NCBI GenBank assembly: GCA_031082205.1
Contig: JAVHLJ010000004.1
Span: 8,942 to 72,941 of the forward strand
Length of the DNA stretch: 64,000 nucleotides
Direction of reading: 5' to 3'
Source: Elusimicrobiales bacterium
GTDB lineage: Bacteria > Elusimicrobiota > Elusimicrobia > Elusimicrobiales > UBA9959
Made by a program: the position numbers and the translations under genes. Shown here in pieces: positions 6,857-46,137 of the stretch. The notes under the pieces are model-generated. The model worked only from the letters and a program-made list of their open reading frames with translations. It had not been told where the DNA came from and did no database searches. Each line of letters starts with the position of its first letter. Positions within the stretch are counted from its first letter, which is position 1.

Positions 6857-8097
6857 ACAAGTCCCTCGCCGCGCTCAACAAGGAATTCCCCGTCCTGAAG
6901 GCCCGCTTCTCCGGGCGCAGGCTGGTGTATCTCGACAGCGCCTGCACCGTCCTCAAGATGCGCGGCGCGGCCGACGCGCAGCGGGAGAACCTGCTGCGGC
7001 TGGGCGGCTGCGGCGGGCGCCGCTCCTTCTATTCGCTGTCCGCCGGCATGGAGGAGGAGTTCGAGTCCGCTCGGCGCGCCGTCGCGGACTTCATGGGCGC
7101 CGCTTCGCCCGACGAGGTCATCTTCGCCGGCGGCGTCACCGACGCGGCCAACCTGCTGGCCAACTCTTTTCCCTTCACGAAAGAACGCGACGAGGTGGTC
7201 CTGTCGCCGCTGGAGCATAACGCCGTTTTCCTTCCTTTCGAGCGGCTGGCCGCCGCCGGGCGGGTGAAACTGAAGGTCCTCCCGCTCAAAGGGCTCGCCC
7301 CCGACCTGGACGCCCTGCCCCGGCTGCTGGGCCGCCGCACAGCGCTGGTCTGCCTCAACCACGCCTCCAATATCTTCGGCGGCAGGCAGGAGATCCGCCG
7401 CGCGGCGGCTGTTACGCGCGCGGCCGGCGCTTATCTCTTTTCCGACGACGCGCAGTTCGCCCCCACCCACGGCTCGGGCGCCGCGGCCGAGGGGGCCGAC
7501 GCCTGCGCCTTTTCCGGCCACAAACTGGGCGCGCCCTACTGCACCGGCGCGCTTTACGTCCGCCGGGAGCTGATGGCGAAGCTGCGCCCCTGGCGCGTCG
7601 GCGGCGGCACCGTGGAGGGAGTGGAACGCGACGGAGGCTACAAGGCTAAATATATCGGCGGCAACAGGGGTTTCGAGGCCGGCGTTCAGAATTACGCCGG
7701 CGCGGCCGGCCTGGCCGCGGCGATACGGCGGCTGGAACTTGCCGGCTTCGGCAATATCCGGGCGCATGTCTCCGGGCTGGTCATGGACGCTCATGACAGG
7801 CTGTCGGCCGTAAAAGGCGTCCGCGTTCTGGGCGACCGGGCCGCCCTGGCGGAGGGCTCGCTCATATCGATAGTCCCGGAGAAACGCGGCTTCTCGGCTC
7901 AGGACTTCGCTCTCTTCCTGGACTCGAGCGTCAAAGGGCTTTCGATAGCCGTGCGCTCCGGCCGCCACTGCGCCGACCTGGCCTGCCTGGCCTCGGGCGT
8001 GAAGGAAACCCTGCGGCTGTCGTATTTCACCTACAATACGCCGGCCGACACCGAGACCTTCGCGCGGGCGCTGGAACGCTACCTGCGGATGCTCTAA
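6853..8097 (+). CDS. SufS-like PLP-dependent cysteine desulfurase (aminotransferase class V)
   Basis: ATGA overlap start. YLDSAC, EHNA, FSGHK (PLP Lys), FEAG, RSGRHCA (type II catalytic Cys). Confidence 0.85.
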   Translation: MNKSLAALNKEFPVLKARFSGRRLVYLDSACTVLKMRGAADAQRENLLRLGGCGGRRSFYSLSAGMEEEFESARRAVADFMGAASPDEVIFAGGVTDAANLLANSFPFTKERDEVVLSPLEHNAVFLPFERLAAAGRVKLKVLPLKGLAPDLDALPRLLGRRTALVCLNHASNIFGGRQEIRRAAAVTRAAGAYLFSDDAQFAPTHGSGAAAEGADACAFSGHKLGAPYCTGALYVRRELMAKLRPWRVGGGTVEGVERDGGYKAKYIGGNRGFEAGVQNYAGAAGLAAAIRRLELAGFGNIRAHVSGLVMDAHDRLSAVKGVRVLGDRAALAEGSLISIVPEKRGFSAQDFALFLDSSVKGLSIAVRSGRHCADLACLASGVKETLRLSYFTYNTPADTETFARALERYLRML

Positions 8098-8104
8098 GAC
8101 AGGC

Positions 8105-8145
8105 CCAATTATATAGAATATATTCAGCACATCTACGGAGGAAAA
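8105..8145 (+). promoter_or_regulatory. AT-rich promoter-like spacer and RBS for ygeY
   Basis: TATAGAAT in an AT-rich island, and GGAGG upstream of ATG 8146. Confidence 0.4.
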
Positions 8146-9336
8146 ATGGACAAGAAAGAACTGCTGCACAAGACCGCTTTGAAATACAGGAACGACATGG
8201 TGAAGTTCGCCTCGGACCTGGTCAAGATCCCCAGCTTCTCCTGCAAGGAAGGCCCGCTGGTGGAGCGCATCAAGAAAGAGATGATAAAGGTCGGCTTCGA
8301 CAAGGTGAAGATCGACGCGATGGGCAATATCATCGGCTTCCTCGGCAAGGGGAAGAAGAAGATCATGATGGACGCCCATATCGACACCGTCGGCATAGGC
8401 GACCCCAAGGCCTGGAAGATAAACCCGTTCGCCGGCCTGGTCAAGAACGGCCATATCTACGGCCGCGGCGCCACCGACCAGAAGCTCTCCATGGTCCCGA
8501 TGGTCTACGCCGCCAAGATGATAAAGGAACTCGGCCTCGAGGGCGACTATACGCTTATGGTCGTCGGCTCCGTCATGGAGGAGGACTGCGACGGCCTCCC
8601 GATACTGCATATCGTCAACAAGGAGAAGATCCGCCCGGACTTCGTGGTCATCACCGAGCCGACCGACCTCAAGGTGTACCGCGGCCACCGCGGCCGCATG
8701 GAGATGAAGGTCGTGACCAAGGGACGCAGCTGCCACGCCAGCGCGCCCGAGCGCGGCGACAACGCCGTGGTCAAGATGGCCGACATCACCAAGGAGATCA
8801 CCGCCCTCAACAAGCGGCTCAAGAACGACAAGTTCATCGGCAAGGGCACCGTCGCCGTCACCTCGATAGAGTGCAAGACGCCGTCGCTCAACGCCGTGCC
8901 CGACGAGTGCACGATATACCTGGACCGCCGCCTGACCGTGGGCGAGACGCTCAAGAGCTCGGTCGCCGAGATAAAGCGGCTGCCTTCCGTGAAGAAGGCG
9001 AAGGCCTCCGTCGAGGTGCTGCAGTACTCCGAGACCGCCTGGACCGGCCTGAAGGTCGGCCAGGAGAAATACTTCCCGACCTGGGTGCTGCCGGAGAACC
9101 ACAAGCTGGTGCAGGCCGGCGCCCGCGCCGCGGCCATAGCGCTCAAGAAGAAGCCGGTCATAGACCGCTGGGTGTTCTCCACCAACGGCGTGGCTTCGGC
9201 CGGCCGCCTGGGCATCCCTACGATAGGCTTCGGCCCGTCCAACGAGATCTACGCCCACACGGTCAACGAGAACATGCCGATAGACCACCTGGTCAAGGCG
9301 GCCGTGTTCTACGCCGCGCTGCCCGGCGAGCTCTGA
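8146..9336 (+). CDS. ygeY: YgeY-family M20 metallohydrolase
   Basis: DAHIDTV, GRGATDQK, VMEEDCDG, TEPT, GHRGR, HASAPERGDNA, FSTNG, GFGP...AH. Confidence 0.85.
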   Translation: MDKKELLHKTALKYRNDMVKFASDLVKIPSFSCKEGPLVERIKKEMIKVGFDKVKIDAMGNIIGFLGKGKKKIMMDAHIDTVGIGDPKAWKINPFAGLVKNGHIYGRGATDQKLSMVPMVYAAKMIKELGLEGDYTLMVVGSVMEEDCDGLPILHIVNKEKIRPDFVVITEPTDLKVYRGHRGRMEMKVVTKGRSCHASAPERGDNAVVKMADITKEITALNKRLKNDKFIGKGTVAVTSIECKTPSLNAVPDECTIYLDRRLTVGETLKSSVAEIKRLPSVKKAKASVEVLQYSETAWTGLKVGQEKYFPTWVLPENHKLVQAGARAAAIALKKKPVIDRWVFSTNGVASAGRLGIPTIGFGPSNEIYAHTVNENMPIDHLVKAAVFYAALPGEL

Positions 9337-9365
9337 GCGCCGGCGCGGTCCCGTACGCGGTATGA

Positions 9366-9399
9366 CCCCCCGCGCGAGGGCGCGGGGGGGACGGTTTTT
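9366..9399 (+). terminator. GC-rich hairpin between ygeY and the next rSAM gene
   Basis: CCCCCCGCGC-GAGG-GCGCGGGGGG (perfect 10-bp stem); the T5 tract is offset by 5 nt. Confidence 0.5.
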
Positions 9400-9401
9400 C
9401 C

Positions 9402-10490
9402 ATGAAGTCCAACCCGTTCGTCAAAAAGAACCTCGCGGCCGCGCTCGCGGCAGCACCGGGCGCGCCCGCCGCGGAGCTTCGCCGCCGCCTGGCCCGCGTG
9501 CGCTGGCCGGTGTACCGCAAGCCGAAGGTCTGCGAGGTCACGGTCAATTACCGCTGCAATCTCCGCTGCGTCTTCTGCTATAACCCCGCCGATTTCCACG
9601 CCTCCGACGCGCCGCCGGCGGACATGAAGGACATAGCCCGGGCTCTCTACGCCGGGCGCAGGAGCGGGGCCTGGATAGCCAGCCTCATCGGCGGCGAGCC
9701 CACGCTGCGCCCGGACCTGCCGGAGATAGCCCGACTGGCCCGGAAGATGGGCTACCCGCTGGTGAAGGTCTGCACCAACAGCGTCAATTTTTCCGACAGG
9801 ACGCTGATGCCGCGGCTGCGGGCCGCCGGCGTCAACATGCTCGACGTTTCGCTGCACGGGCCTTCGGCCGCGGTGCACGACCGGCTGGTCGGCGTGAAGG
9901 GCGCTTTCGACCGGGTGGTCGCCACCGTGCGCGCCGCCCAGGCCGCCGGCCTGGAAGTGGGCCTGGCGCAGGTCGTCAACCGCCTGAACTACCGGCGTTT
10001 TCCTGAATTCTTCCGTTTCGTCTTCGGGGAGCTGAAGATCAACTACTACAACATCATCTACGGCCATTACGCCGGCCTGATGGCCGGCAACGCGGCCCTG
10101 CTGCGGACGAGGATATCCTCCACGGTGCCCTATGTCAGGCGGGGCCTGGCCCATATCGCCTCTTCCGGGCTGCCGTCCTTCGCCCGGATGGTGGTCAATT
10201 TTCCGCCCTGCCTGATGCCGGAGTATTTCAACGTCATGGCCGACTGGGAACTGCCATCGTCCGGCGAGGCGCAGGAGGAACTGATGCTGCCCGACGGCAC
10301 CATGCGCGGGCTGCAGGAGATGAAGGCCGAAGGCTCCGCGAAAGTTAAGGGCTGCCGCGGCTGCCTGCTCTACGACAGGTGCAAGGGCGTGGAGAAGAGC
10401 TACATAAAACTTTACGGCGGTTCCGAGTTCAAAGCGATAAAGGCGCTGCCGCCCCAGGAACTGGCCGCGGCCTGGGAGAGGGGCGCCTGA
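9402..10490 (+). CDS. Radical SAM protein, HxsC-like
   Basis: CNLRCVFC, LIGGEPT, SLHGP, FPPC, CRGCLLYDRCKG. Confidence 0.85.
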   Translation: MKSNPFVKKNLAAALAAAPGAPAAELRRRLARVRWPVYRKPKVCEVTVNYRCNLRCVFCYNPADFHASDAPPADMKDIARALYAGRRSGAWIASLIGGEPTLRPDLPEIARLARKMGYPLVKVCTNSVNFSDRTLMPRLRAAGVNMLDVSLHGPSAAVHDRLVGVKGAFDRVVATVRAAQAAGLEVGLAQVVNRLNYRRFPEFFRFVFGELKINYYNIIYGHYAGLMAGNAALLRTRISSTVPYVRRGLAHIASSGLPSFARMVVNFPPCLMPEYFNVMADWELPSSGEAQEELMLPDGTMRGLQEMKAEGSAKVKGCRGCLLYDRCKGVEKSYIKLYGGSEFKAIKALPPQELAAAWERGA

Positions 10491-11527
10491 TGCCGACGCG
10501 CGAGCTGGACCTCTGCGTAACCAACGCCTGCAACCTGCGCTGCCGCTACTGCTACGCGGCGGGCCGCAATATGGGCCGGACCGCGCTGACCGCGGCCGAG
10601 ATGCGCCGCGCCGTCGATCTCTATCTCGAGGGGGCCGCCCGCACCTGCGACAAGATAAGCGTCAGCGGCGGCGAGCCGCTGCTGCTCTGGCGGCTGATGC
10701 CCGGCCTGCTGGGCCACATAAAGTCCGCCAGGCCCCGCGGCGCCGGCACCGAGCTTTTCACCAACGGCCTGCTGCTTTCCCCGGACAAGGCGCGCGCCAT
10801 GCTCAAGGCGGGCGTGAAGGTCAGGCTGAGCCTTGACGGCGAGAAGGAGAGCCACGACGCCTGCCGCCCTTCGGCCTCGGGGCGCTCGTCCTTCGGCTCC
10901 GTCATCGGCCGCGTCCTGGCGCTGCCCCCGGAGCTGCGCGCCCGGCTGGACGCGGTACCCACGGTCTCCATAGTCAGCTACCGCCGCATGACCGAGAACA
11001 TGCTCTTCCTGCTGGCGCTGGGCCTGCAGGCGGTCAAGCCTTCCTTCGTCCTCGACGAGGTCTGGCCGGCCGCCGACCTGCGCGAACTGAGGCGGGTGCT
11101 GGCCGCGCTCAAACGGACCGCCGCGAAGCATCTGCGCTCCGGGCGCCTCAACAGGGTGGCGCTAAAGGACCTCTCCGGCGGCGCCGCGGATTTCAGGATG
11201 TCCAACGAGATATCGATAGGCACCGACAGGTTCTTCTACCCCAGTTCGCTGGTCGCCGCCTCCTCGCCCGCGCTGCCGAAATCCCTCCTCGACGAATGGA
11301 GGATCGGCAGCCTGTCGGAGGGGATAGACTGGGAGAGGCTCGACGCCCTGCGCGACCGGGCCTACGCCGAGATAAAGTCCTGCGGCGCCGACCTCTACCT
11401 CGGCTGCCTGCTCTGCATGTATTACAGCTCCCGGATAAGGAAGGTACCGCTGAAGCCCCTGCTTAAAAGCGGGGAGAAGGTGGCGCGCGCCGTGCTCGAG
11501 GCCGGCCTGGGCGAGGTGTCGCCCTGA
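10490..11527 (+). CDS. Radical SAM protein
   Basis: TGATG overlap start. CNLRCRYC, VSGGEPL, LSLDG. Confidence 0.8.
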   Translation: MPTRELDLCVTNACNLRCRYCYAAGRNMGRTALTAAEMRRAVDLYLEGAARTCDKISVSGGEPLLLWRLMPGLLGHIKSARPRGAGTELFTNGLLLSPDKARAMLKAGVKVRLSLDGEKESHDACRPSASGRSSFGSVIGRVLALPPELRARLDAVPTVSIVSYRRMTENMLFLLALGLQAVKPSFVLDEVWPAADLRELRRVLAALKRTAAKHLRSGRLNRVALKDLSGGAADFRMSNEISIGTDRFFYPSSLVAASSPALPKSLLDEWRIGSLSEGIDWERLDALRDRAYAEIKSCGADLYLGCLLCMYYSSRIRKVPLKPLLKSGEKVARAVLEAGLGEVSP

Positions 11528-31761: not shown

Positions 31762-31867
31762 CTAAATCTTATAATATCTTATGAAATTACCGGGGGCCAG
31801 CGAAAAATCCCCCGCGTCACGCAATAAAACATGACCCCCGCGCGTTACACTTATGAGAGGAGGCCCG

Positions 31868-32431
31868 ATGCTGGAAGACGCTGAACTGGTCCGGGCCTTC
31901 AATGGCGGCGACGAGGCCGCGCTGGGAGAACTGATAGCGAGGCACAGGGACAGGCTTTACGCCTACCTGCGCCGGCTGGCGGGGGACGATGCGGGAGCCG
32001 AGGATATGTTCCAGGACACTTGGATAAAGGTCGCGCGAAACATGGGCGCCTACAGGGAGGAGAACAGGTTCTCCGCCTGGCTCTTTTCGGTGGCGCGCAA
32101 CACCGCGATGGACGCGCTCAGGCGCCGCCGGCCGGAGAGCGTTTCGCTGGACGCCGCCGTGGCGGAGGACGGCAGACCGCTGGCCGAGACCATAGGTTCG
32201 GCCGAGCCGGGCCCCGAGGCGTCCTACGCGGCCGCCGAATCCCGCCGGGCCATAGACGCGGCCCTGGCGGAGCTTTCCCCGGAGCAGCGCGAAGTATTCC
32301 TGCTGAGGCATTACTCGGGAATGTCGTTCAAGGAGATAGCCGACGCCCTCGGCGTGCCGATAGGGACCGTGCTGGCCCGGGCCTCCAGGGCCGCGGCCAA
32401 ACTCAGGGACAAGCTGGCGGGGGAAATATGA
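31868..32431 (+). CDS. ECF RNA polymerase sigma factor (sigma-70 family)
   Basis: GAGGAGG RBS; DAELV, AEDMFQDTW, FSAWLFSVARN, region 4 SFKEIA..LGVPIGTV. Confidence 0.9.
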   Translation: MLEDAELVRAFNGGDEAALGELIARHRDRLYAYLRRLAGDDAGAEDMFQDTWIKVARNMGAYREENRFSAWLFSVARNTAMDALRRRRPESVSLDAAVAEDGRPLAETIGSAEPGPEASYAAAESRRAIDAALAELSPEQREVFLLRHYSGMSFKEIADALGVPIGTVLARASRAAAKLRDKLAGEI

Positions 32432-32901
32432 GCTGCGAGAAAGAAGGTAAAACGCTTTTGCTCCATTACGGCGAACTGCCCGCGGCGGAAGCCTCCGCCG
32501 CGCGCGCGCACGCGGCGGTCTGCCCGGACTGCCGCCGGCTGCTGGAAGGGCTCGGCAGGGCCGAAGCCATGCTGTCCGCTTCCGACGCCCCCGCGCCCGC
32601 CGGCCTCGCCGCGGCGGCGCTCGAGCGCGCCCTGGCCGGGAGCCAGGGGCTGTTGTCCTGGCTTTTCACTGACTGGCGCCGCGCCGCGGCTGCGGCCGCC
32701 GGCGTCATGCTTATGTTCGCCGTCTTCCGCGGCGCCGCCCCTGAGCCGGCGCAGCAGGTGGCCTCGCTGGAGATCATCGAGGAGAGCCTGGATAACCTGG
32801 AATATTCCATCTACCAGGCCCGGGTGGACTTCTCCACCCGGGAGATACAGGATTTCGACTATAAGTACGCGGATATGGAGTCGAGAAAAGAAAGCGTCTA
32901 G
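32428..32901 (+). CDS. Zinc-finger (HxxxCxxC) transmembrane anti-sigma factor
   Basis: ATGA overlap; MSC...LLHYGEL...HAAVCPDC followed by one TM helix. Confidence 0.8.
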   Translation: MSCEKEGKTLLLHYGELPAAEASAARAHAAVCPDCRRLLEGLGRAEAMLSASDAPAPAGLAAAALERALAGSQGLLSWLFTDWRRAAAAAAGVMLMFAVFRGAAPEPAQQVASLEIIEESLDNLEYSIYQARVDFSTREIQDFDYKYADMESRKESV

Positions 32902-32916
32902 TATAACGGAGGGGTT

Positions 32917-33648
32917 ATGAAGAGGCTGTTCGCGGTGTTCTTCGGTTCGCTGTTCGTTTTCGCGGCGTCGCTGCCTTACGCGGCGGCGCAGGGCGAGGGC
33001 ATGGACGAGGAGATAGAGATAGAAGAGGCGTTCGAGGGCGGCCCCGGCATGGGCCCGGGCGGCAGGCAGGGCGGCGGCCCCGGCATGCGGGGGCCCATGG
33101 GCGGCCCCGGGATGGGCGGCCCGCAGCAGCGGCAGATGAACGTCAAGGTGCGCAAGGTTATGCGCCAGGGCGAGGGAGGCCCCGGCTGGCAGGACGACGG
33201 GGGCGCCGAGGAGAAGGGCCTGGAGCTCATCAAGAAGCACGACCCTGCCTTCCACGGCAAGCTGCTCAAGCTGCGCGAATCGGCCCCGGCCAAGTATAAA
33301 ATGGCCATGCGCATGGCCGGCAAGACGCTGATCATGGCGAAGATGGACCAGGACCCGGTCCTGGAGAAGAATACCGTCCGCATGCTGGCGCTGGAATACG
33401 AGACCCGCGAGCTCGGGCTGGCCTACGAGAAGGCCAAGGACTCCGAGAAAGCGAAGATAAAGGCCGACCTCAAGAAAGGCCTCTCCGAGCTTTTCGACCT
33501 GCGCCTCGGCAACCAGGAGGTGCGCGTCAAGCGCATGGAGAAGGACCTGGCCCGCCTCAAGGCCCAGATAGATAAGCGCAAGGCCTCCAAGGCCAAGCTC
33601 GTAGAGGCGCGCCTGGAGCAGATGACCGGCGAAGCCGAGACCTGGTAA
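32917..33648 (+). CDS. Periplasmic Spy/CpxP/heavy-metal-sensor-like helical protein
   Basis: Signal peptide, Gly/Pro/Met-rich linker, coiled-coil C-half; third gene of the ECF operon. Confidence 0.6.
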   Translation: MKRLFAVFFGSLFVFAASLPYAAAQGEGMDEEIEIEEAFEGGPGMGPGGRQGGGPGMRGPMGGPGMGGPQQRQMNVKVRKVMRQGEGGPGWQDDGGAEEKGLELIKKHDPAFHGKLLKLRESAPAKYKMAMRMAGKTLIMAKMDQDPVLEKNTVRMLALEYETRELGLAYEKAKDSEKAKIKADLKKGLSELFDLRLGNQEVRVKRMEKDLARLKAQIDKRKASKAKLVEARLEQMTGEAETW

Positions 33649-33667: not shown

Positions 33668-33703
33668 AAAAAAACCCCCGCGGGGATACCGCGGGGGTTT
33701 TTT
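33668..33703. terminator. Bidirectional intrinsic terminator
   Basis: A7-CCCCCGCGG-GGATA-CCGCGGGGG-T6. Confidence 0.9.
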
Positions 33704-33720: not shown

Positions 33721-33802
33721 TTACTTTACCAGCTTGGCCGCGTCGACCATGCCGGCGCCCTGGTGGACGGGCTGAACGGCCGGGAGCTGCGTGGCCGCGC
33801 CC
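33721..33802 (-). pseudogene. Orphan original 3' end of the S8 peptidase gene (GAATQLPAVQPVHQGAGMVDAAKLVK*)
   Basis: In-frame copy of the S8 C-terminus with its own TAA, followed 17 nt later by the terminator. Confidence 0.85.
33731..33802. repeat. 72-bp perfect direct repeat, copy 1
   Basis: Identical by eye to 34883..34954. Confidence 0.95.
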
Positions 33803-33885
33803 AGGAGCCTGTCCGACATAAGCAATTTCAGCTGCAATTGCCGCTTTTGGCCTGCGCCCTTGCGCCGCTCGACTCGCAGGCTCCT
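33803..33885. mobile_element. 83-bp MITE/IS-end-like element with 9-bp terminal inverted repeats
   Basis: AGGAGCCTG ... CAGGCTCCT; the right end lies in CTAG; no transposase. Confidence 0.45.
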
Positions 33886-34597
33886 AGGACCATAGATGTT
33901 TAATGGTGGTCGAAATGTTCATAAGGGAGTGCAGCAATATGGTGAGGCGGATGTCCGATTTCGCCTCGTAGATCGCCGTGATGTAGCACGAAAATAGAAA
34001 TACGATCCAACCGCTCTCTTGATGAAGCGCCGAGAACAGGATCGAAACAAAGAGAACGGCCGGAACGGGGCTCAGAACGCTTCTCATTCGTGTATATATA
34101 AAGCGGCGGAACAAGAGCTCCTCTCCTACTGGGGCGAATATGCACGCGGATATCAGAAAGAGCGCGGATAATATCGGGGCGGCGGAGGGATCTGCCGCGA
34201 GGATGCCGCCGGAGGCGTCCCCCGATATGGCGACCCTAATCGCCGCAGGCGTTAATGAATCCGGCAGTTTTTCGGCAAGGAAGAGCAGTAATGACGCTCC
34301 ACCATAGTAGAGGGCGAAAAGCTTTGCCGACGCGAACAAGGCGGAAAAGAACCTCGTTTTCCAGTGGGAAAGCGTGAATTCCGGTTCCAGTCTTTTAAAG
34401 TATCTGTAAGCGAGGCCGGCCGCCACGATGCTTTGCGCTGAGAGGTAGAAGAGGGTCGATTCTTCGCGGCTCAATTGAGATCCAAGGTGCCGCATGATCA
34501 TGAATCCGCATGCGAAAATAAGAGCGGAAACGAAGATTATTTGCGCGACAAGAATCAATACGTCTGCCAGCGGGGGCGGGGCGGGTTTGTTTGTCAT
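33884..34597 (-). CDS. CPBP (CAAX protease / Abi) family intramembrane metalloprotease
   Basis: GEELLFR, FSALH and LHSLMN motifs; multiple TM helices; AT-richer than the flanks. Confidence 0.85.
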   Translation of the reverse strand: MTNKPAPPPLADVLILVAQIIFVSALIFACGFMIMRHLGSQLSREESTLFYLSAQSIVAAGLAYRYFKRLEPEFTLSHWKTRFFSALFASAKLFALYYGGASLLLFLAEKLPDSLTPAAIRVAISGDASGGILAADPSAAPILSALFLISACIFAPVGEELLFRRFIYTRMRSVLSPVPAVLFVSILFSALHQESGWIVFLFSCYITAIYEAKSDIRLTILLHSLMNISTTIKHLWS

Positions 34598-34612
34598 GCC
34601 GGGTGTCGGGCC

Positions 34613-34653
34613 AAAAGAAAAAGGGGAGGAGATTCTCCTCCCCTTTTTCTTTT
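34613..34653. terminator. Perfect 19-bp inverted repeat / terminator after the S8 gene
   Basis: AAAAGAAAAAGGGGAGGAG-ATT-CTCCTCCCCTTTTTCTTTT. Confidence 0.8.
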
Positions 34654-34662
34654 GATATCAGG

Positions 34663-36075
34663 CTACTGCGCCCGCTGGATGTTGTGCAGGATTTCGGTCT
34701 GACTGTAAGGGTGCGGTTGCGGTGAGCTGGGCTGTTGCTGCGGCGCTTCGCCGTTGCCGCTCGGCCGCGGGATATTTATATCCGGGCAGCCGGTGGTGAC
34801 ACAGGCGTATACATAGTTTGCCACTACTCCGCCGGCCACGGTCCAAGCGAACGCCCCCGGGTTTTTGGCCGCCGCCGGGATGAGCTTGGCCGCGTCGACC
34901 ATGCCGGCGCCCTGGTGGACGGGCTGAACGGCCGGGAGCTGCGTGGCCGCGCCCTTGAGCGCCTCGCGCACGGCTTCCGCGCCGGTATTGCCGGCTTCCA
35001 CCGCCAGCGCCGCCAGGCCCGCCGCGTGGGGGCTGGCCATCGAGGTGCCGGACATGCTGGTGTAGCCGCCGCCGCGCCTGGTCGAGTAGACGCTCACGCC
35101 GGGGGCGATGACCGCTATCTCGGGGCCGCGGGAGGAGAAGGAGGCTATGCTGTCGTTGGAGGCGCTGGCCGAGACGGCTATGGCCTCCGGGTAGCGGGCC
35201 GGGAAGTTGACCGCGCCCGAGTCGTTGCCCGCGGCGCAGACTATGGCGATGCCGGCCTTGTGGGCGACCTTCATGACCTCGGCGAGAGCGGCGGTGCCGC
35301 TGCGGCCGCCCAGGCTCATGTTGATGACCTGCATCTTGTTCTCCACGGCCCACTCGATGCCGGCGACGATCCAGGAATACTGGCCGGAGCCGTTCTTGTC
35401 GAGGACCTTGACGCCGTAGAGCTCGGCGCGGGGGGCCACGCCGGCCACGCCCTTGCCGTCGCGCACCGCGCCGACCGTGCCGGCCACGTGCGTGCCGTGG
35501 CCCTGGTCGTCCATCGGGTCGCTGGTCTGGGTGACCGCGTTCCAGCCGCCCTTGTAGTTGGGGGCCAGGTCGGGGTGGGTGTAGTCTATGCCGGTGTCTA
35601 TCACGGCGACTTTGACGCCGGCGCCGGTGACGTAGGGCCAGGCGCCGGCGGCGTTAACGCGCTTTACGCCCCAGGGCAGCTCGGCGTCCTCCTGCCTGGT
35701 GAAGGAGAGGACCGGCTCGGCGGCCGGGGTCTCGAGTTCGCCCGCGGAGGCCAGAACGGACTCCAGGGTCGGCAGGGGGGAGGCCTGCAGCGAGGCTTCG
35801 TTGAGCCAGGGCAGGTAGAGGTCGTCCTCGACGTTGGTCACGCCCTTGAGCGACCAGATCTTGAAATCCTTGACGTCCTCGGGGAAGACGGCCGCGACGG
35901 CGCCTATGAGCTTGAGCTCGCGCTCCACGGTGCCGCCGAGGCTGTTTATCTGGACGAACTTCTCCGACGACTTCATGTGCCTGTCGAACGTCACTATCTT
36001 GTTTCCGCCGGCGAAAGCCGATGCCGCGAAGGACAGGGCCAGTACCAGCGCTAACGCTATTTTAAGACGCTTCAT
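34663..36075 (-). CDS. Secreted S8 subtilisin-like serine protease with I9 propeptide and an acquired 72-aa C-terminal tail
   Basis: Signal peptide; VAVIDTG (Asp), GHGTHVAG (His), AAGN, GTSMASPH (Ser). Confidence 0.95.
   Translation of the reverse strand: MKRLKIALALVLALSFAASAFAGGNKIVTFDRHMKSSEKFVQINSLGGTVERELKLIGAVAAVFPEDVKDFKIWSLKGVTNVEDDLYLPWLNEASLQASPLPTLESVLASAGELETPAAEPVLSFTRQEDAELPWGVKRVNAAGAWPYVTGAGVKVAVIDTGIDYTHPDLAPNYKGGWNAVTQTSDPMDDQGHGTHVAGTVGAVRDGKGVAGVAPRAELYGVKVLDKNGSGQYSWIVAGIEWAVENKMQVINMSLGGRSGTAALAEVMKVAHKAGIAIVCAAGNDSGAVNFPARYPEAIAVSASASNDSIASFSSRGPEIAVIAPGVSVYSTRRGGGYTSMSGTSMASPHAAGLAALAVEAGNTGAEAVREALKGAATQLPAVQPVHQGAGMVDAAKLIPAAAKNPGAFAWTVAGGVVANYVYACVTTGCPDINIPRPSGNGEAPQQQPSSPQPHPYSQTEILHNIQRAQ
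34883..34954. repeat. 72-bp perfect direct repeat, copy 2 (inside the S8 gene)
   Basis: Identical by eye to 33731..33802; offset 1152 bp. Confidence 0.95.
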
Positions 36076-36200: not shown

Positions 36201-37091
36201 TCAGCGGCTTCCTTTGACCAGGCTGGTGTCGAATTTATAGACGATGCCGCTGACTTCGGGGTTGGACATGAGCGTGGACATCAGCATCGGGTCCTGCATC
36301 GCCATGCTTATGAGGTCCGGGTTCGAATTGACCAGGTCGGCCACCGCCGCCGGGTCCTTCATCAGCTGCCTGCCGGCCGGGGTGTCGAGCAGCGCGGCGA
36401 CCATGCCGCTGGAGGCGACGGCGCTGACCACGGCGGGGTTGTTCAGGGCGGCTTTAACCACCGGGTTGTTGACGAAATTGGCGGGGCCGGGGCCTTTCAG
36501 GTACTCTTTGAGCGCCTCGGGGCTGGAGGTGGCCTGTTTTACCGTGGAGCGGGCCATGAAGCCTTCCACCACGTACTTGTTGTTGAGAAGCGCTTTGACC
36601 GCGGCCGGGCTCTTCATCGCGGCCCCGACGGCCTTGGTCAGGTAGCCGGTCTGATGGCCCACGGACATCTGCTCCCGCTTCCTTATATCGTCCATGTCCG
36701 GGCGCTGCACGCCCGCCGCGGCGGCTTTGGCCGCCGACATTCCGGAAGAGCCCTTGCCGGCCCCGCCGGAGCCTTCCGGCGCCGCCGTCCCCCGGCCCCC
36801 GGTTCCCCCGGACTCTCCGCCTGCGCGCACCAGGGGCTTTTCCGGGGCTTCCCCGCCGGTGCGGTAGCGCACGCGCAGCACGCCGTCCACGAATTCGGGT
36901 TCGGTAAGCTCGCCCCAGTTCTTTATCTCTCCCTCCGACGAGGCGAAGGCGCCGTAGTCCTCCTGGGACATCTCCAGGTCCCCCGCCTTCATCTGCATGC
37001 TCCACCTGGCCAGCGGCCAGAGCAGCAGCAGGTATACCGGGGTGAGGTAGATCCAGATGCGCCAGCCGGACTTTTTTTCCTGGTTCTCCAT
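36201..37091 (-). CDS. Hypothetical single-pass membrane protein
   Basis: Start moved to ATG 37091 (MENQEKK); N-terminal TM helix, low-complexity linker, helical C-half. Confidence 0.7.
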   Translation of the reverse strand: MENQEKKSGWRIWIYLTPVYLLLLWPLARWSMQMKAGDLEMSQEDYGAFASSEGEIKNWGELTEPEFVDGVLRVRYRTGGEAPEKPLVRAGGESGGTGGRGTAAPEGSGGAGKGSSGMSAAKAAAAGVQRPDMDDIRKREQMSVGHQTGYLTKAVGAAMKSPAAVKALLNNKYVVEGFMARSTVKQATSSPEALKEYLKGPGPANFVNNPVVKAALNNPAVVSAVASSGMVAALLDTPAGRQLMKDPAAVADLVNSNPDLISMAMQDPMLMSTLMSNPEVSGIVYKFDTSLVKGSR

Positions 37092-37144
37092 AAGGGTAAA
37101 TATGATATAACACCAATTGAGGCGCGCTGTCAATACGCGGAGAT

Positions 37145-43582: not shown

Positions 43583-44366
43583 GCCGGCCCCCTCCGGCCT
43601 GGGCCTTTCCCTGGCCGGCCGGCGTTTCGGCTTCGCCTTCGATACCGCCTCTTTCGCCGCGGCCATGTCCCGGCGTTACGCCGCTTTCCTGGCCCCGCCC
43701 CCGGCCGGCACGGTGGAGGTGCGGGCCGGGGGTCCCGTCCGGCCGCCCTTCCTTCCGCGCGTTTCGGGCTGGCCTCTCATATCGGGCCGGCGCGGCGACT
43801 TCGGGTTCTCCTTCGACGCCGTTTCCGGTTCAGGCCGCGCCGTGGTCTCGCCTCGGGCCCAGAGCTTCGATTCTTTCCTGCGGACTCTCTGCTCGGCCCT
43901 GCTCAACGGGAGCGGCGGCGCGCTGGTACACGCCTGCGGGCTTGCCGTGAGCGGACGGGCCCATGTGTTCATCGGCCGCAGCGGGGCCGGCAAGTCCACC
44001 CTCGCGCGGCTGGCCGCCGCGGCGGGAGCGGAAGTGATAAGCGACGAGATCGTTCCGCTGCGCCTTGAGCGCGGGCGGTTCTACGTTCACGGCTCGCCTT
44101 TCTGGGGCGAGCTGCGCTCGGCCGGCCGGCCGCTGCGGCTGCCGCTGGGAGGGATATACGCGTTGCGTAAATCCCGGATAAATTCCCTTCGCGCGGGGCC
44201 CGTCGCCGGCTTTATCCCGCTTTTCATGCGCTGCTCCCTGAATTTCTCCAAAGAGCCTGCCGCCTCCTCCGGCCTGCTGGACGCCGCCGCCCGGGCCGCG
44301 CGGCTCTATAAGGGAGCCTTCTCCTTCTCCAAAAAGAACGCCTCGTTCCTGCGGCTGCTGAAATGA
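43557..44366 (+). CDS. HPr-kinase-like P-loop protein (ScmC-like, RiPP cassette)
   Basis: VHACG, GRSGAGKST Walker A, ISDE, HGSPFWGE; start uncertain (alternative ATG 43665). Confidence 0.75.
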   Translation: MKCGRPSSEPAPSGLGLSLAGRRFGFAFDTASFAAAMSRRYAAFLAPPPAGTVEVRAGGPVRPPFLPRVSGWPLISGRRGDFGFSFDAVSGSGRAVVSPRAQSFDSFLRTLCSALLNGSGGALVHACGLAVSGRAHVFIGRSGAGKSTLARLAAAAGAEVISDEIVPLRLERGRFYVHGSPFWGELRSAGRPLRLPLGGIYALRKSRINSLRAGPVAGFIPLFMRCSLNFSKEPAASSGLLDAAARAARLYKGAFSFSKKNASFLRLLK

Positions 44367-44641
44367 TTTATAATCAAAGCATGGGGTGGAAGCCTAAAAA
44401 GGGCCTGGCGCACAGGGAAATAGACGGGGCGGTCTACATCGTGGACGCGGCCGGCTCGCGCCTGCACCGTCTAAACGAGACCGGCTCTTTCATCTGGAAG
44501 TCTCTGGCCGCCGGCCGCCCGCGCGCAGGGATAGCCGCAGCCCTGGCCGACGAGTTCGAAGTTGACGGGCCCGCCGCCGAAGCCGACGCGGAAAGTTTCA
44601 TCCGGGAACTGGAAAAAGCCGGATTGCTGGAAGAACGATGA
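44363..44641 (+). CDS. PqqD-family RiPP recognition element (RRE)
   Basis: REIDGAVYIVD, LNETGSFIW, LADEFEVD, FIRELEKAGLL; alternative start ATG 44381. Confidence 0.9.
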   Translation: MIYNQSMGWKPKKGLAHREIDGAVYIVDAAGSRLHRLNETGSFIWKSLAAGRPRAGIAAALADEFEVDGPAAEADAESFIRELEKAGLLEER

Positions 44642-44775
44642 AGAAAAAACGCAAGTATTCAAAGCCGGCGATGAAGACGGAGAGGGTGTTCGAGACCGCC
44701 GCGCTCGCCTGCGGCAAATGCCAGAGCGGTCCTACCGGCCAGGCGGCCTGCAAGACGCTCAGGCGCTGGTCCTGA
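44638..44775 (+). CDS. 45-aa RiPP precursor peptide MKKKRKYSKPAMKTERVFETAALACGKCQSGPTGQAACKTLRRWS (absent from the ORF track)
   Basis: ATGA overlap with the RRE gene; stops 1 nt before the peptidase ATG; YxxP-type leader motif; three Cys in the core. Confidence 0.85.
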   Translation: MKKKRKYSKPAMKTERVFETAALACGKCQSGPTGQAACKTLRRWS

Positions 44776-44776
44776 A

Positions 44777-45121
44777 ATGCCCGTCGGCCGGGAACCGAAA
44801 GCGTTCCGCCTGGAAGGGAGCAGCATGCGGCCCCTGTTCCGGGATGGCGATACCGCGCTGGTGCGGCGGGGGCGGCTGCGGCGCGGCGACTGCGCGGTAT
44901 ACCTGGCCGGCGGCCGGACGCTGCTGCACCGGGTAGCCGGTTTCGCCGGTGAGCGGGTAGTCCTGCGCGACGACGGCTGGGAGACTCCGCCGCACGCGGT
45001 CCACCCAAGGAACATCGTCGGACGCGTCGTATCCGGCAATCCCCTAAAGAGCGGGCTGCCCGGTTACGCCTGGTTCCTCGCCCGCGGCCTGTTGAAATGG
45101 TTCAGAAAGAATCCCTGTTAG
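44777..45121 (+). CDS. S24/S26-family peptidase (RiPP cassette)
   Basis: GSSMRPLFRDGD (Ser nucleophile), LLHRV, RDDG. Confidence 0.8.
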   Translation: MPVGREPKAFRLEGSSMRPLFRDGDTALVRRGRLRRGDCAVYLAGGRTLLHRVAGFAGERVVLRDDGWETPPHAVHPRNIVGRVVSGNPLKSGLPGYAWFLARGLLKWFRKNPC

Positions 45122-46137
45122 CCGGGCTTAACCGCGCTTCCCTTGAAAAGAACATCCCCCTGACGGCGGTCGTCGAGCTGACGCGCCGCTGTCCCCTCTC
45201 CTGCGTCCATTGCTGCCTGCCGGAGACCCGCGGCCGCGCCGAGCCCGGCCGCGAATTGACCGCCCGGCAATGGCTGAAAATTTTCAAAGAGCTGGCCGGG
45301 CTGGGCTCCATGAACCTGGTGCTGACCGGCGGGGAGCCGCTGCTGCGGCCCGATCTTCCCGCAATAGCGGCCGGCGCGGCGGACCTGGGTTTCGGCGTGA
45401 CCGTGTTCACCACCGGCCTCCCCGCGGCGCCGGCCCCGCTGCGCGCGCTGAAAAAAGCCGACGTCTCTTCCTTCGAGCTCAGCCTCTACGGCCGCCCGGC
45501 GGCGCATGACGGGATAACGGGGCTGAAAGGATCGCAGCGGCGCACGCTGGCCGCCGCCCGGCTTATGCGGCGGCTGGGTTTCAAAGTGAAACTGAAATGC
45601 CCGCTGATGTCGGTGAACGCGGGCGAGGCTTCATATATCATGAGAACGGCGAAGAAATCGGGCTTTGAATTCTCCTTCGATATCTCCATGGCCCCCGGGA
45701 ACGACGGCGAGCGGACCCCGCTGTCCCTGAAACTGCCGGATAAGCGACTGAAGCGATTGCTGGGCCTTCCGACCCTGCGGCCGGAGCCGAATACGGAAGG
45801 CGGGGCGGGGGACCTGATCTGCGGCGCCGGGCGCAATACCGTCGCTTTCGCCCCGGACGGAACGGTCTATCCCTGTCTTCAATTGCCGCTGCCCCTCGGC
45901 AATGCCGTGAAGACCCCTCTGTGCCGTATCTGGAAAGGTTCCGGACGGCTCCGCTGGTGGCGTTCCCGGCGCCGGCGGAATATAGAAAAATGCCGTTCCT
46001 GCCGCCTCTGGGATATCTGTTCGCGCTGCCCGGGGTTGGCCCTGCTGGAGGACGGCGACATGATGGGCCCTTCCGCGCAGGCCTGCCGTTCGGCGGCCAT
46101 AGCCGGCCGTATCTTCAAAAAACGGCTGGGGAGGTAG
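45097..46137 (+). CDS. Radical SAM/SPASM peptide maturase
   Basis: CPLSCVHC, LTGGEPL; SPASM CGAG...PDG.VYPC...CRSCRLWDICSRCPG...C. Confidence 0.9.
   Translation: MVQKESLLAGLNRASLEKNIPLTAVVELTRRCPLSCVHCCLPETRGRAEPGRELTARQWLKIFKELAGLGSMNLVLTGGEPLLRPDLPAIAAGAADLGFGVTVFTTGLPAAPAPLRALKKADVSSFELSLYGRPAAHDGITGLKGSQRRTLAAARLMRRLGFKVKLKCPLMSVNAGEASYIMRTAKKSGFEFSFDISMAPGNDGERTPLSLKLPDKRLKRLLGLPTLRPEPNTEGGAGDLICGAGRNTVAFAPDGTVYPCLQLPLPLGNAVKTPLCRIWKGSGRLRWWRSRRRRNIEKCRSCRLWDICSRCPGLALLEDGDMMGPSAQACRSAAIAGRIFKKRLGR

Follow-up and report, generated by a model that had tools for sequence, protein, structure and literature searches.

Why does the gene of a subtilisin-like protease carry its own last codons twice, and what has been placed between the two copies? 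The gene lies in a 64-kb stretch of an Elusimicrobiales bacterium contig (the window, to which positions refer unless a locus is named), on the minus strand like all other genes of interest at this locus, and encodes a peptidase of family S8. For comparison we used about 20 syntenic Elusimicrobia loci, labelled by L-numbers; one of them, L002 (GCA_040752315.1), is a strain of the same species whose flanks show 98-99% nucleotide identity to the window. The best explanation overall, and a moderately probable one when its genetic and functional layers are combined, is that the window would represent one allele of a polymorphic toxin/immunity-style locus on a conserved secreted Elusimicrobia S8 protease. 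Of the two layers, the genetic architecture, with polymorphic modules on a conserved S8 gene, is solid and very probably correct as judged from sequence comparison, and the toxin/immunity function is plausible, with about an even chance of being right.

The duplicated end of the S8 gene

A repeat search of the window identifies a direct repeat of 78 nt with 2 mismatches at 33731-33808 and 34883-34960, spaced by 1152 nt. Its first 72 nt (33731-33802 and 34883-34954) have zero mismatches, confirming the perfect 72-bp repeat reported in the initial annotation. An 18-mer from the repeat has only two sites in the 64-kb window, and at least 2 matches were obtained in 0 of 100 shuffles. The 72-bp repeat doubles the 3' end of the S8 gene. 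The upstream copy is expressed and continues into a 72-aa tail (tail1), a hairpin and a gene for a CPBP intramembrane protease (CPBPc), as had been annotated and as is borne out by open reading frame (ORF), Pfam and inverted-repeat data. The hairpin begins 8 nt past the S8-tail1 stop and is followed by a T-run. The downstream copy translates as ...LLGAATQLPAVQPVHQGAGMVDAAKLVK (...AAKLVK) up to a stop codon, with a terminator behind it. The cassette between the copies had also been described as richer in AT than its flanks. This holds for the cassette as a whole (GC 0.556) and for the CPBPc gene (0.529) relative to the S8 core (0.683, with 0.92 at third codon positions, GC3), but tail1 with a GC of 0.641 is only slightly lower.

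The protein encoded upstream of the repeat is an unambiguous subtilase of family S8. Pfam PF00082 covers residues 151-388 (208.6 bits, E=1.6e-61), the motifs DTG160, HGTH193 and GTSMA343 were located by regular expression, and D160, H193 and S345 are invariant in 35 homologs. The N-terminus (MKRLKIALALVLALSFAASAFA/GG) resembles a Sec signal peptide, judged by eye alone. Among 5026 S8 homologs at E<=1e-30, the best 120 are all about 386-415 aa long and lack a tail, and the alignment of the 35 homologs terminates in ...QGAG(L/M)VDAxKLVx. Because of these lengths and this shared end, the short form stopping after ...LVK is, by sequence comparison, the family norm and the 470-aa form of the window the exception. 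The S8 core protein of the window is 100% identical to that of L002, and in silico deletion of one repeat unit yields a 400-aa S8 protein identical to the one encoded by L002, in agreement with the earlier proposal that one crossover between the copies would restore the short protease. The 72-bp repeats are long enough for a RecA-type deletion that removes tail1 and CPBPc together; such an event would bring back the 400-aa protease at the cost of the tail and the CPBP gene.

A fusion read across a repeat could also be the work of an assembler that jumped between repeat copies in a mixed population, so that the fused S8-tail1 gene exists in no cell. The length of the repeat (72 bp) would allow this, the S8 core-repeat-tail1 arrangement is spanned by one contig only (JGI Ga0484001_0000379), and related alleles share some samples, L005 and L100 both coming from SRR28842985. 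Usual read lengths exceed 72 bp, however, and the side running from CPBPc through the spacer and the repeat to the LVK end is repeated in an independent metagenome-assembled genome and in Logan contigs. The Logan unitigs L003 and L004 hold 30 nt of the repeat followed by tail1, hairpin and CPBPc, and single-contig S8-tail fusions are found in L008 and L087, where repeats are at most 25 nt long or absent. An assembly artefact is thus unlikely, and we give it very little weight.

Empty, fused and orphan states at syntenic loci

The initial annotation had pointed to syntenic S8 loci as the place to look for an empty form and for alternative tails, and both are present there. Empty sites with the order S8-LVK-stop, terminator and 243-aa gene occur in L009, L010, L088, L089, L090, L092 and L093, and alternative tails at the same junction in L008, L087, L099, L101, L002 and L022. 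The S8 proteins of L008 and L009 are 95% identical, and a tail and a CPBP gene are found in L008 alone. Because of the empty loci, the short S8 gene of L002 and the alternative tails at one junction, the downstream repeat copy of the window is, as far as sequences can tell, the original S8 end and the expressed tail1 a swapped-in module. The annotated original ...AAKLVK end with its host terminator is thereby upheld by the empty loci and the short S8 norm.

Four mutually unalignable tail families are found, each at VDAA(K/R)L, and the S8 cores of the full-length fusions (window, L008, L087) are at least 87% identical. Tail1 is paired with CPBPc in the window, tail2 with CPBPa in L002 and L101, tail3 with CPBPb, and tail4 with a 355-aa secreted ORF in L087. 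The tail3 family covers the widest range of states: it is fused in L008, where a 461-aa S8 protein is fused to tail3 and CPBPb lies downstream, and in L099/L100, where a displaced S8 end follows 3' of CPBPb. In L022/L098 and L097 it is an orphan behind a short S8 gene and its terminator, preceded in frame by some 20 nt of S8 homology and followed by CPBPb, and in L007 it is reduced to its last ~17 codons next to an intact CPBPb. In L101, the S8 end (55 nt or more) leads into tail2', with a hairpin and CPBPa' behind it; a tail3 truncated on its 5' side and a CPBPb with a frameshift come next. L087 encodes a 427-aa S8 protein fused to the 27-aa tail4 with four Cys residues, followed by a hairpin, the 355-aa ORF and a displaced 25-nt S8 end with terminator. 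In L091, the S8 protein closes with ...VDAKILAKIPQP, a 9-aa substitute end, behind which lies a 4.1-kb cargo of 49% GC; it comprises a pair of paralogs with weak similarity to Peptidase_M74, a gene for an FG-GAP protein, a pseudogene of CPBPb and a displaced S8 end.

The same-species strain L002 combines several of these states. Its short 400-aa S8 gene and terminator are followed by an orphan tail2, CPBPa, CPBPb, a displaced S8 end, an ISL3-family insertion sequence (IS), CPBPc and a second displaced end. A 22-nt S8 fragment is in frame with the 70-aa tail2, which is followed by a hairpin, and the first displaced end, after CPBPb, measures about 45-52 nt (...AAKLLK-stop). The last section consists of the window's CPBPc, spacer and displaced 88-nt end in the same position. 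The ISL3 element (8624-9972 in L002; transposase PF01610, E=1.4e-70) has no target-site duplication and interrupts the hairpin at a point corresponding to 34625 of the window; tail1 and half of the hairpin are gone. The junction between the element and CPBPc is also present in two Logan samples, L005 and L006.

The initial annotation had likened this geometry to attL/attR integration or to the orphan modules of polymorphic toxins, and the second comparison fits while the first does not. Direct repeats on either side of AT-richer DNA, located where a conserved gene has its 3' end, are what a site-specific integrative cassette would produce, with the 72-bp copies as attL and attR, a recombinase acting in trans and a 1152-bp circle as its free form. 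Yet the points at which S8 and tail sequences diverge are spread across about 15 nt between loci, the displaced fragments measure ~24-25, 27, 42, ~45-52 or 78 nt depending on the locus, and the genes called within +/-10 kb include no integrase or recombinase, whose absence had been noted from the start. Because of these three observations a precise att-type reaction is excluded. Orphan tails in L002, L022/L098 and L097 carry merely 19-22 nt of upstream S8 homology, which also speaks against such a cassette, as does the failure of viral scans to return a viral or phage relative. Rfam and tRNA scans of the window found nothing, hence no tRNA-type att site. We therefore rate site-specific integration as highly improbable. 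Scanning metagenomes for the junction 25-mer yielded no more than 3 loci.

Displaced S8 ends of 24-78 nt stand behind the cassettes of the window, L002, L087, L091, L097 and L099. Exchange by homology within the 3' end of S8, joined irregularly on the distal side ('C-terminal displacement'), would fit the arrangements observed. Both 72-bp copies bear this species' own sequence variants, so that the duplication either involved resident DNA or was homogenised afterwards. A separate observation concerns the joining of modules: a tail3-internal sequence, GCCGGCATGGT (...AGMV...; L101 1019-1036, L022 681-691), matches the S8 junction sequence (GAGMV). Since the truncated orphan tail3 of L101 starts exactly at GCCGGCATGGT, the sequences suggest microhomology-mediated joining.

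Tails and partner genes as candidate effector/immunity pairs

Are the tails genuine coding sequence? The base composition of tail1 in the fused frame (GC1/2/3 of 0.64/0.54/0.74) is coding-like. Tail3 (4 variants) and tail2 (2 variants) contain invariant Cys pairs and conserved Trp/Tyr cores. The ratio of nonsynonymous to synonymous divergence (dN/dS) is 0.12-0.37 for tail3 at dS of 0.96-1.61 and 0.25 for tail2 at dS of 1.11, with corresponding values of 0.17-0.38 for CPBPb (dS 0.16-1.31, most pairs 0.4-1.3), 0.25 for CPBPa (dS 1.17) and 0.19-0.45 for the S8 core (dS 0.16-0.28). Because of these values, the tail2 and tail3 modules are, on sequence evidence, coding sequence under constraint and far older than the S8 backbone that carries them. 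Their divergence together with their low GC (0.49-0.56 for modules compared with 0.68 for S8) indicates horizontal exchange or long-maintained alleles.

These data bear on the idea that the S8 3' end is a neutral hotspot repeatedly entered by foreign DNA, with the tails as functionless, accidental read-through. The 4.1-kb AT-rich cargo of L091 with its 9-aa substitute end could be explained in this way, tail1 has no homolog, and a 72-codon open frame would arise by accident in DNA of ~62-64% GC with a chance of about 10% (our own estimate). Purifying selection and invariant Cys residues in the tail2 and tail3 families argue against it, as do the coding-like GC3 of tail1, the frame shared by fused and orphan tails with the VDAAKL codons at every locus, the stops of tail1, tail2 and tail4 (those checked) just ahead of their own hairpins, and the consistent pairing of tail families with particular partner genes. 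We consider a neutral hotspot improbable.

The three CPBP partners are bona fide members of their family, scoring 59.7, 73.7 and 65.2 bits with PF02517 (gathering cut-off 22.4), and the EExxxR, FxxxH and HxxxN motifs are intact in all of them including CPBPc. A word-index search of 5.8e9 proteins with CPBPc returned only CPBPc itself, and CPBPb forms just 7 clusters, every one within this clade. CPBPc is kept without tail1 in L002, L005 and L006, and CPBPb is kept with a deleted or silent tail in L002 and L007. Searches of the tails, the 355-aa ORF and the CPBPs with Pfam, NCBIfam and PADLOC models returned nothing past the generic CPBP core.

The main rival to an effector/immunity pair is a dedicated processing or anchoring pair, in which the tail would serve as a recognition signal and the adjacent CPBP would cleave it, whereby the protease is matured, anchored or released. 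Such a system would resemble those of the MrtJ/JDVT-CTERM or the MroQ/SilX type, and the polymorphism would reflect co-evolving enzyme-substrate pairs. Tails with an invariant Cys next to a CPBP with full catalytic motifs are consistent with this. Dedicated co-operonic CPBP systems with a single target have been described (10.1101/2023.06.07.544157), CAAX proteases are able to process peptides (PMC9298176), and the best NCBIfam matches of the CPBPs are MrtJ, MrtS and Mrt_core models. All of these matches lie far under cut-off, however: the MrtJ scores are 29.4, 32.7 and 43.7 bits compared with a cut-off of 75, and other Mrt models score relatively lower. The tails also lack the tripartite sorting signal of CPBP substrates. 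In all seven tails the maximum Kyte-Doolittle hydropathy over 19 residues is only 0.28-1.41, the part after the Cys is Pro/Gln-rich and hydrophilic, and neither a transmembrane (TM) segment after the Cys nor a terminal Arg cluster is present. In addition, CPBPs are intact where the tail is deleted or silent (CPBPb and CPBPc in L002, CPBPb in L007), the partner of tail4 is a secreted non-CPBP protein, and in three families tail and CPBP have a terminator between them. A processing pair appears unlikely on balance, though less so than a neutral hotspot. The MrtJ/JDVT-CTERM and myxosortase systems (10.1101/2023.06.07.544157, PMC11980579) share with this locus a single CPBP gene adjoining one protein with an invariant-Cys C-terminal extension; unlike them, this locus is hyper-polymorphic and contains orphans as well as CPBPs that stand alone.

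The pattern that favours the polymorphic toxin/immunity reading consists of unrelated C-terminal modules with their own partners at one junction of a conserved body, downstream partners that change with the module, silent orphans and displaced ends, partners without tails, and IS elements. What the sequences show of the partners is the genetic pairing; protection by them is putative. Because of this pattern and because of literature precedents for S8 and for CAAX/Abi proteins, we favour the tail as effector and the CPBP as immunity protein. Orphan CT/immunity modules and C-terminal displacement are known for contact-dependent growth inhibition (CDI; cdiA-CT/cdiI) and Rhs loci (PMC3150448), and polymorphic toxins that depend on Sec are known to be processed by S8 peptidases (PMC3482391 Table 1; PMC9424270; PMC13556192). 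CAAX/Abi proteins are reported in PMC9298176, citing Kjos 2010, to give bacteriocin immunity and also to process bacteriocins or serve as receptors.

A module would consist of a short Cys-containing tail, a terminator and a cognate downstream gene, grafted at the VDAA(K/R)L codons. In the window it would comprise tail1, the hairpin and CPBPc, and its grafting would have shifted the native end (repeat, LVK-stop and terminator) 1152 bp downstream. The S8-tail protein would be exported via its putative Sec signal peptide, and the tail could act as a small disulfide-bonded effector peptide, possibly freed by the S8 protease itself. The CPBP inherited along with it would shield the producing cell, much as is reported for Abi/CPBP proteins of class II bacteriocin loci, and strains without a tail or with a silenced one would retain the partner genes as a collection of immunity functions.

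Several points weigh against the toxin/immunity reading. The tails match no known toxin, bacteriocin, Pfam or NCBIfam family, and their toxicity is purely our inference. An AlphaFold2 model of S8-tail1 (35 homologs) has a folded S8 core and a tail1 with a predicted local distance difference test score (pLDDT) of 32-58, which is uninformative. Exhaustive phmmer searches with tail1 against 1.84e9 representative proteins gave 3 weak multi-stretch matches to long repetitive proteins, which we treat as compositional, and a Protein Data Bank (PDB) sequence search with tail2 and tail3 returned nothing at E<=10. Tail1 is known solely as identical copies, on which selection is not measurable, and in this species the continuity of S8 core, repeat and tail1 comes from one metagenome assembly, with Logan unitigs ending inside the repeat. 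Within the tail3 family, tail similarity and CPBPb similarity are not strictly parallel, the tail of L097 being near that of L008 and its CPBPb near that of L022. Since L091 holds a 4-kb cargo with merely a 9-aa substitute end, the S8 site also takes insertions without a meaningful tail. Finally, bacterial CPBPs also process peptides or act as receptors (PMC9298176), and immunity is, from the comparison with such proteins, not the sole role compatible with the adjacent CPBP.

Compared with CDI and Rhs loci, the conserved body likewise meets the variable C-terminus at a short motif (VENN there, VDAA(K/R)L here), a cognate gene lies directly downstream, silent orphan CT/partner pairs have variable upstream homology, IS elements occur within arrays, and deletion between homologous segments joins an orphan to the main gene. 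In contrast to these loci, the body is a 400-aa housekeeping-type S8 protease instead of a filamentous or YD-repeat delivery protein, the tails, 27-75 aa long, show no known toxin fold, a polytopic CPBP protease takes the place of a small soluble immunity protein, and one of the 'modules' is the native stop with its terminator. The S8 polymorphic toxin systems (S8-PTS) described by Li, Tan & Zhang (2022) similarly couple a secreted S8 genetically to polymorphic toxin/immunity genes, with proposed proteolytic release or activation. In those systems, however, peptidase and toxin are encoded separately, the latter as a BetaH-domain protein with nuclease-type domains. At this locus the protease itself carries the variable peptide, no toxin gene stands apart from it, CPBPs are the candidates for immunity, and the host is a diderm Elusimicrobium. 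No BetaH or nuclease domain was detectable in the tails with a model set that had no BetaH model. Class II bacteriocin loci with Abi/CPBP immunity, as far as they are outlined in PMC9298176 from Kjos et al. (2010), are similar in that a small Cys-containing secreted peptide (its secretion being presumed here) adjoins a motif-intact CPBP and that peptide/CPBP pairs vary by strain. They differ, within the same outline, in that the locus described here has no double-glycine leader, ABC exporter or stand-alone peptide gene, that its peptide is the C-terminus of an enzyme, and that it belongs to the phylum Elusimicrobia instead of the Firmicutes.

Polymorphic toxin-type loci as such are known; new here are a housekeeping S8 protease as carrier, very small novel variable peptides, and CPBP partners. 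If the toxin/immunity reading is correct, the logic of such loci would reach the uncultivated phylum Elusimicrobia in a minimal format, an ordinary secreted protease bearing a variable effector, and CPBP/Abi intramembrane proteases would join the immunity repertoire of polymorphic toxin loci. The locus also offers a multi-genome example of C-terminal displacement in which empty, armed and disarmed states are all seen. Its natural tail-CPBP pairs, which include fused, silent and stand-alone CPBP arrangements, make the role of CPBP/Abi proteins in bacteriocin loci testable as immunity, processing or receptor function (PMC9298176). More tentatively, and with the doubtful chance that we attach to this extension, the S8 protein could be a self-processing carrier for an unseen class of small disulfide-bonded antibacterial peptides, exported as its own C-terminus, cut off by the protease and countered by the cognate CPBP. 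Three natural tail/CPBP pairs would then be a ready specificity set for how Abi/CPBP immunity works.

Further features of the locus and neighbouring genes

The features of the locus are collected in Table 1. The spacer behind CPBPc had been described as a MITE-like piece (miniature inverted-repeat transposable element). It occurs once in the window, its edges are marked by no more than a 12-nt inverted repeat (33800-33811 and 33877-33888), and the MITE reading is rejected because of the single copy. The spacer sequence is unchanged across L002, L005 and L006. A promoter scan found no sigma-70-like promoter for CPBPc, an outcome that is not informative in Elusimicrobia.

Table 1. Positions of the S8 locus features in the 64-kb window
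Feature	Position	Strand	Basis or remark
S8 gene, whole (470 aa)	34663-36075	-	ORF, Pfam Peptidase_S8
S8 (subtilisin-family) core: putative signal peptide, I9-like propeptide, catalytic domain (D160, H193, N284, S345)	34955..36075	-	PF00082, motifs
Upstream repeat copy, final conserved S8 codons (GAATQLPAVQPVHQGAGMVDAAKL), junction/recombination segment	34883..34954	-	Repeat and alignment
Tail1, 72 added codons (IPAAAKNPGAFAWTVAGGVVANYVYACVTTGCPDINIPRP...IQRAQ) and stop, in-frame fusion to S8	34663..34881	-	ORF; codons 34881->34666
Perfect 21+1+21 palindrome, intrinsic-terminator-like hairpin between tail1 and CPBP gene	34612..34654	.	Inverted-repeat and terminator scan
CPBPc, CPBP/Rce1-like intramembrane glutamic protease, 237 aa	33884..34597	-	PF02517 E=3.5e-16; proposed tail1 immunity partner
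Spacer, 75 nt, CPBPc stop to displaced S8 end	33809..33883	.	Single copy in window; 12-nt edge inverted repeat
Displaced native S8 3' end, 78-nt repeat copy (72 nt perfect) plus GTAAAGTAA, reads ...GAGMVDAAKLVK and stop	33721..33808	-	Repeat, translation
Host bidirectional terminator, common to convergent 243-aa gene; original terminator of short S8	33669..33703	.	Terminator scan; empty loci L009, L010

Genes for an ECF (extracytoplasmic function) sigma factor, a zf-HC2 anti-sigma factor and a 243-aa Gly/Pro/Met-rich coiled-coil protein, for which no family match was found, converge on the S8 locus at 31853-33648 on the plus strand and are kept in every relative, with or without a cassette. 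Just upstream of S8, 36201-37133 (minus strand) encodes a 310-aa protein that adjoins S8 in all relatives and has weak matches to ubiquilin/STI1 DP domains (eukaryote-type; E ~1e-5, below cut-off). About 8 kb from the S8 locus, at ~43,700-46,100 (plus strand; L001 1-2380), a radical-SAM/SPASM gene is followed by ORFs of 125 and 45 aa, a PqqD-like gene and a 257-aa ORF, a series that looks like a maturation cluster for ribosomally synthesized and post-translationally modified peptides (RiPP-type).

Two related loci carry additional coding sequences. The cargo of L091 encodes, at 7557-10863, two paralogous secreted M74-like proteins (murein endopeptidase; weak similarity) and a 303-aa FG-GAP protein, and could represent effector and immunity genes aimed at the cell wall instead of a tail/CPBP pair. 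At the contig end of L097 (1-135), a non-S8 frame (...ANEALDKLAHALNGRGIFGGGGRVLSIDWGPWK) with a likeness by eye to ketoreductase/PKS-type motifs runs in frame into the last 13 S8 codons (GAGMVDAAKLAK and stop), which could be an extra cargo gene that closes with a displaced piece of S8, or else a chimera formed at the contig end.

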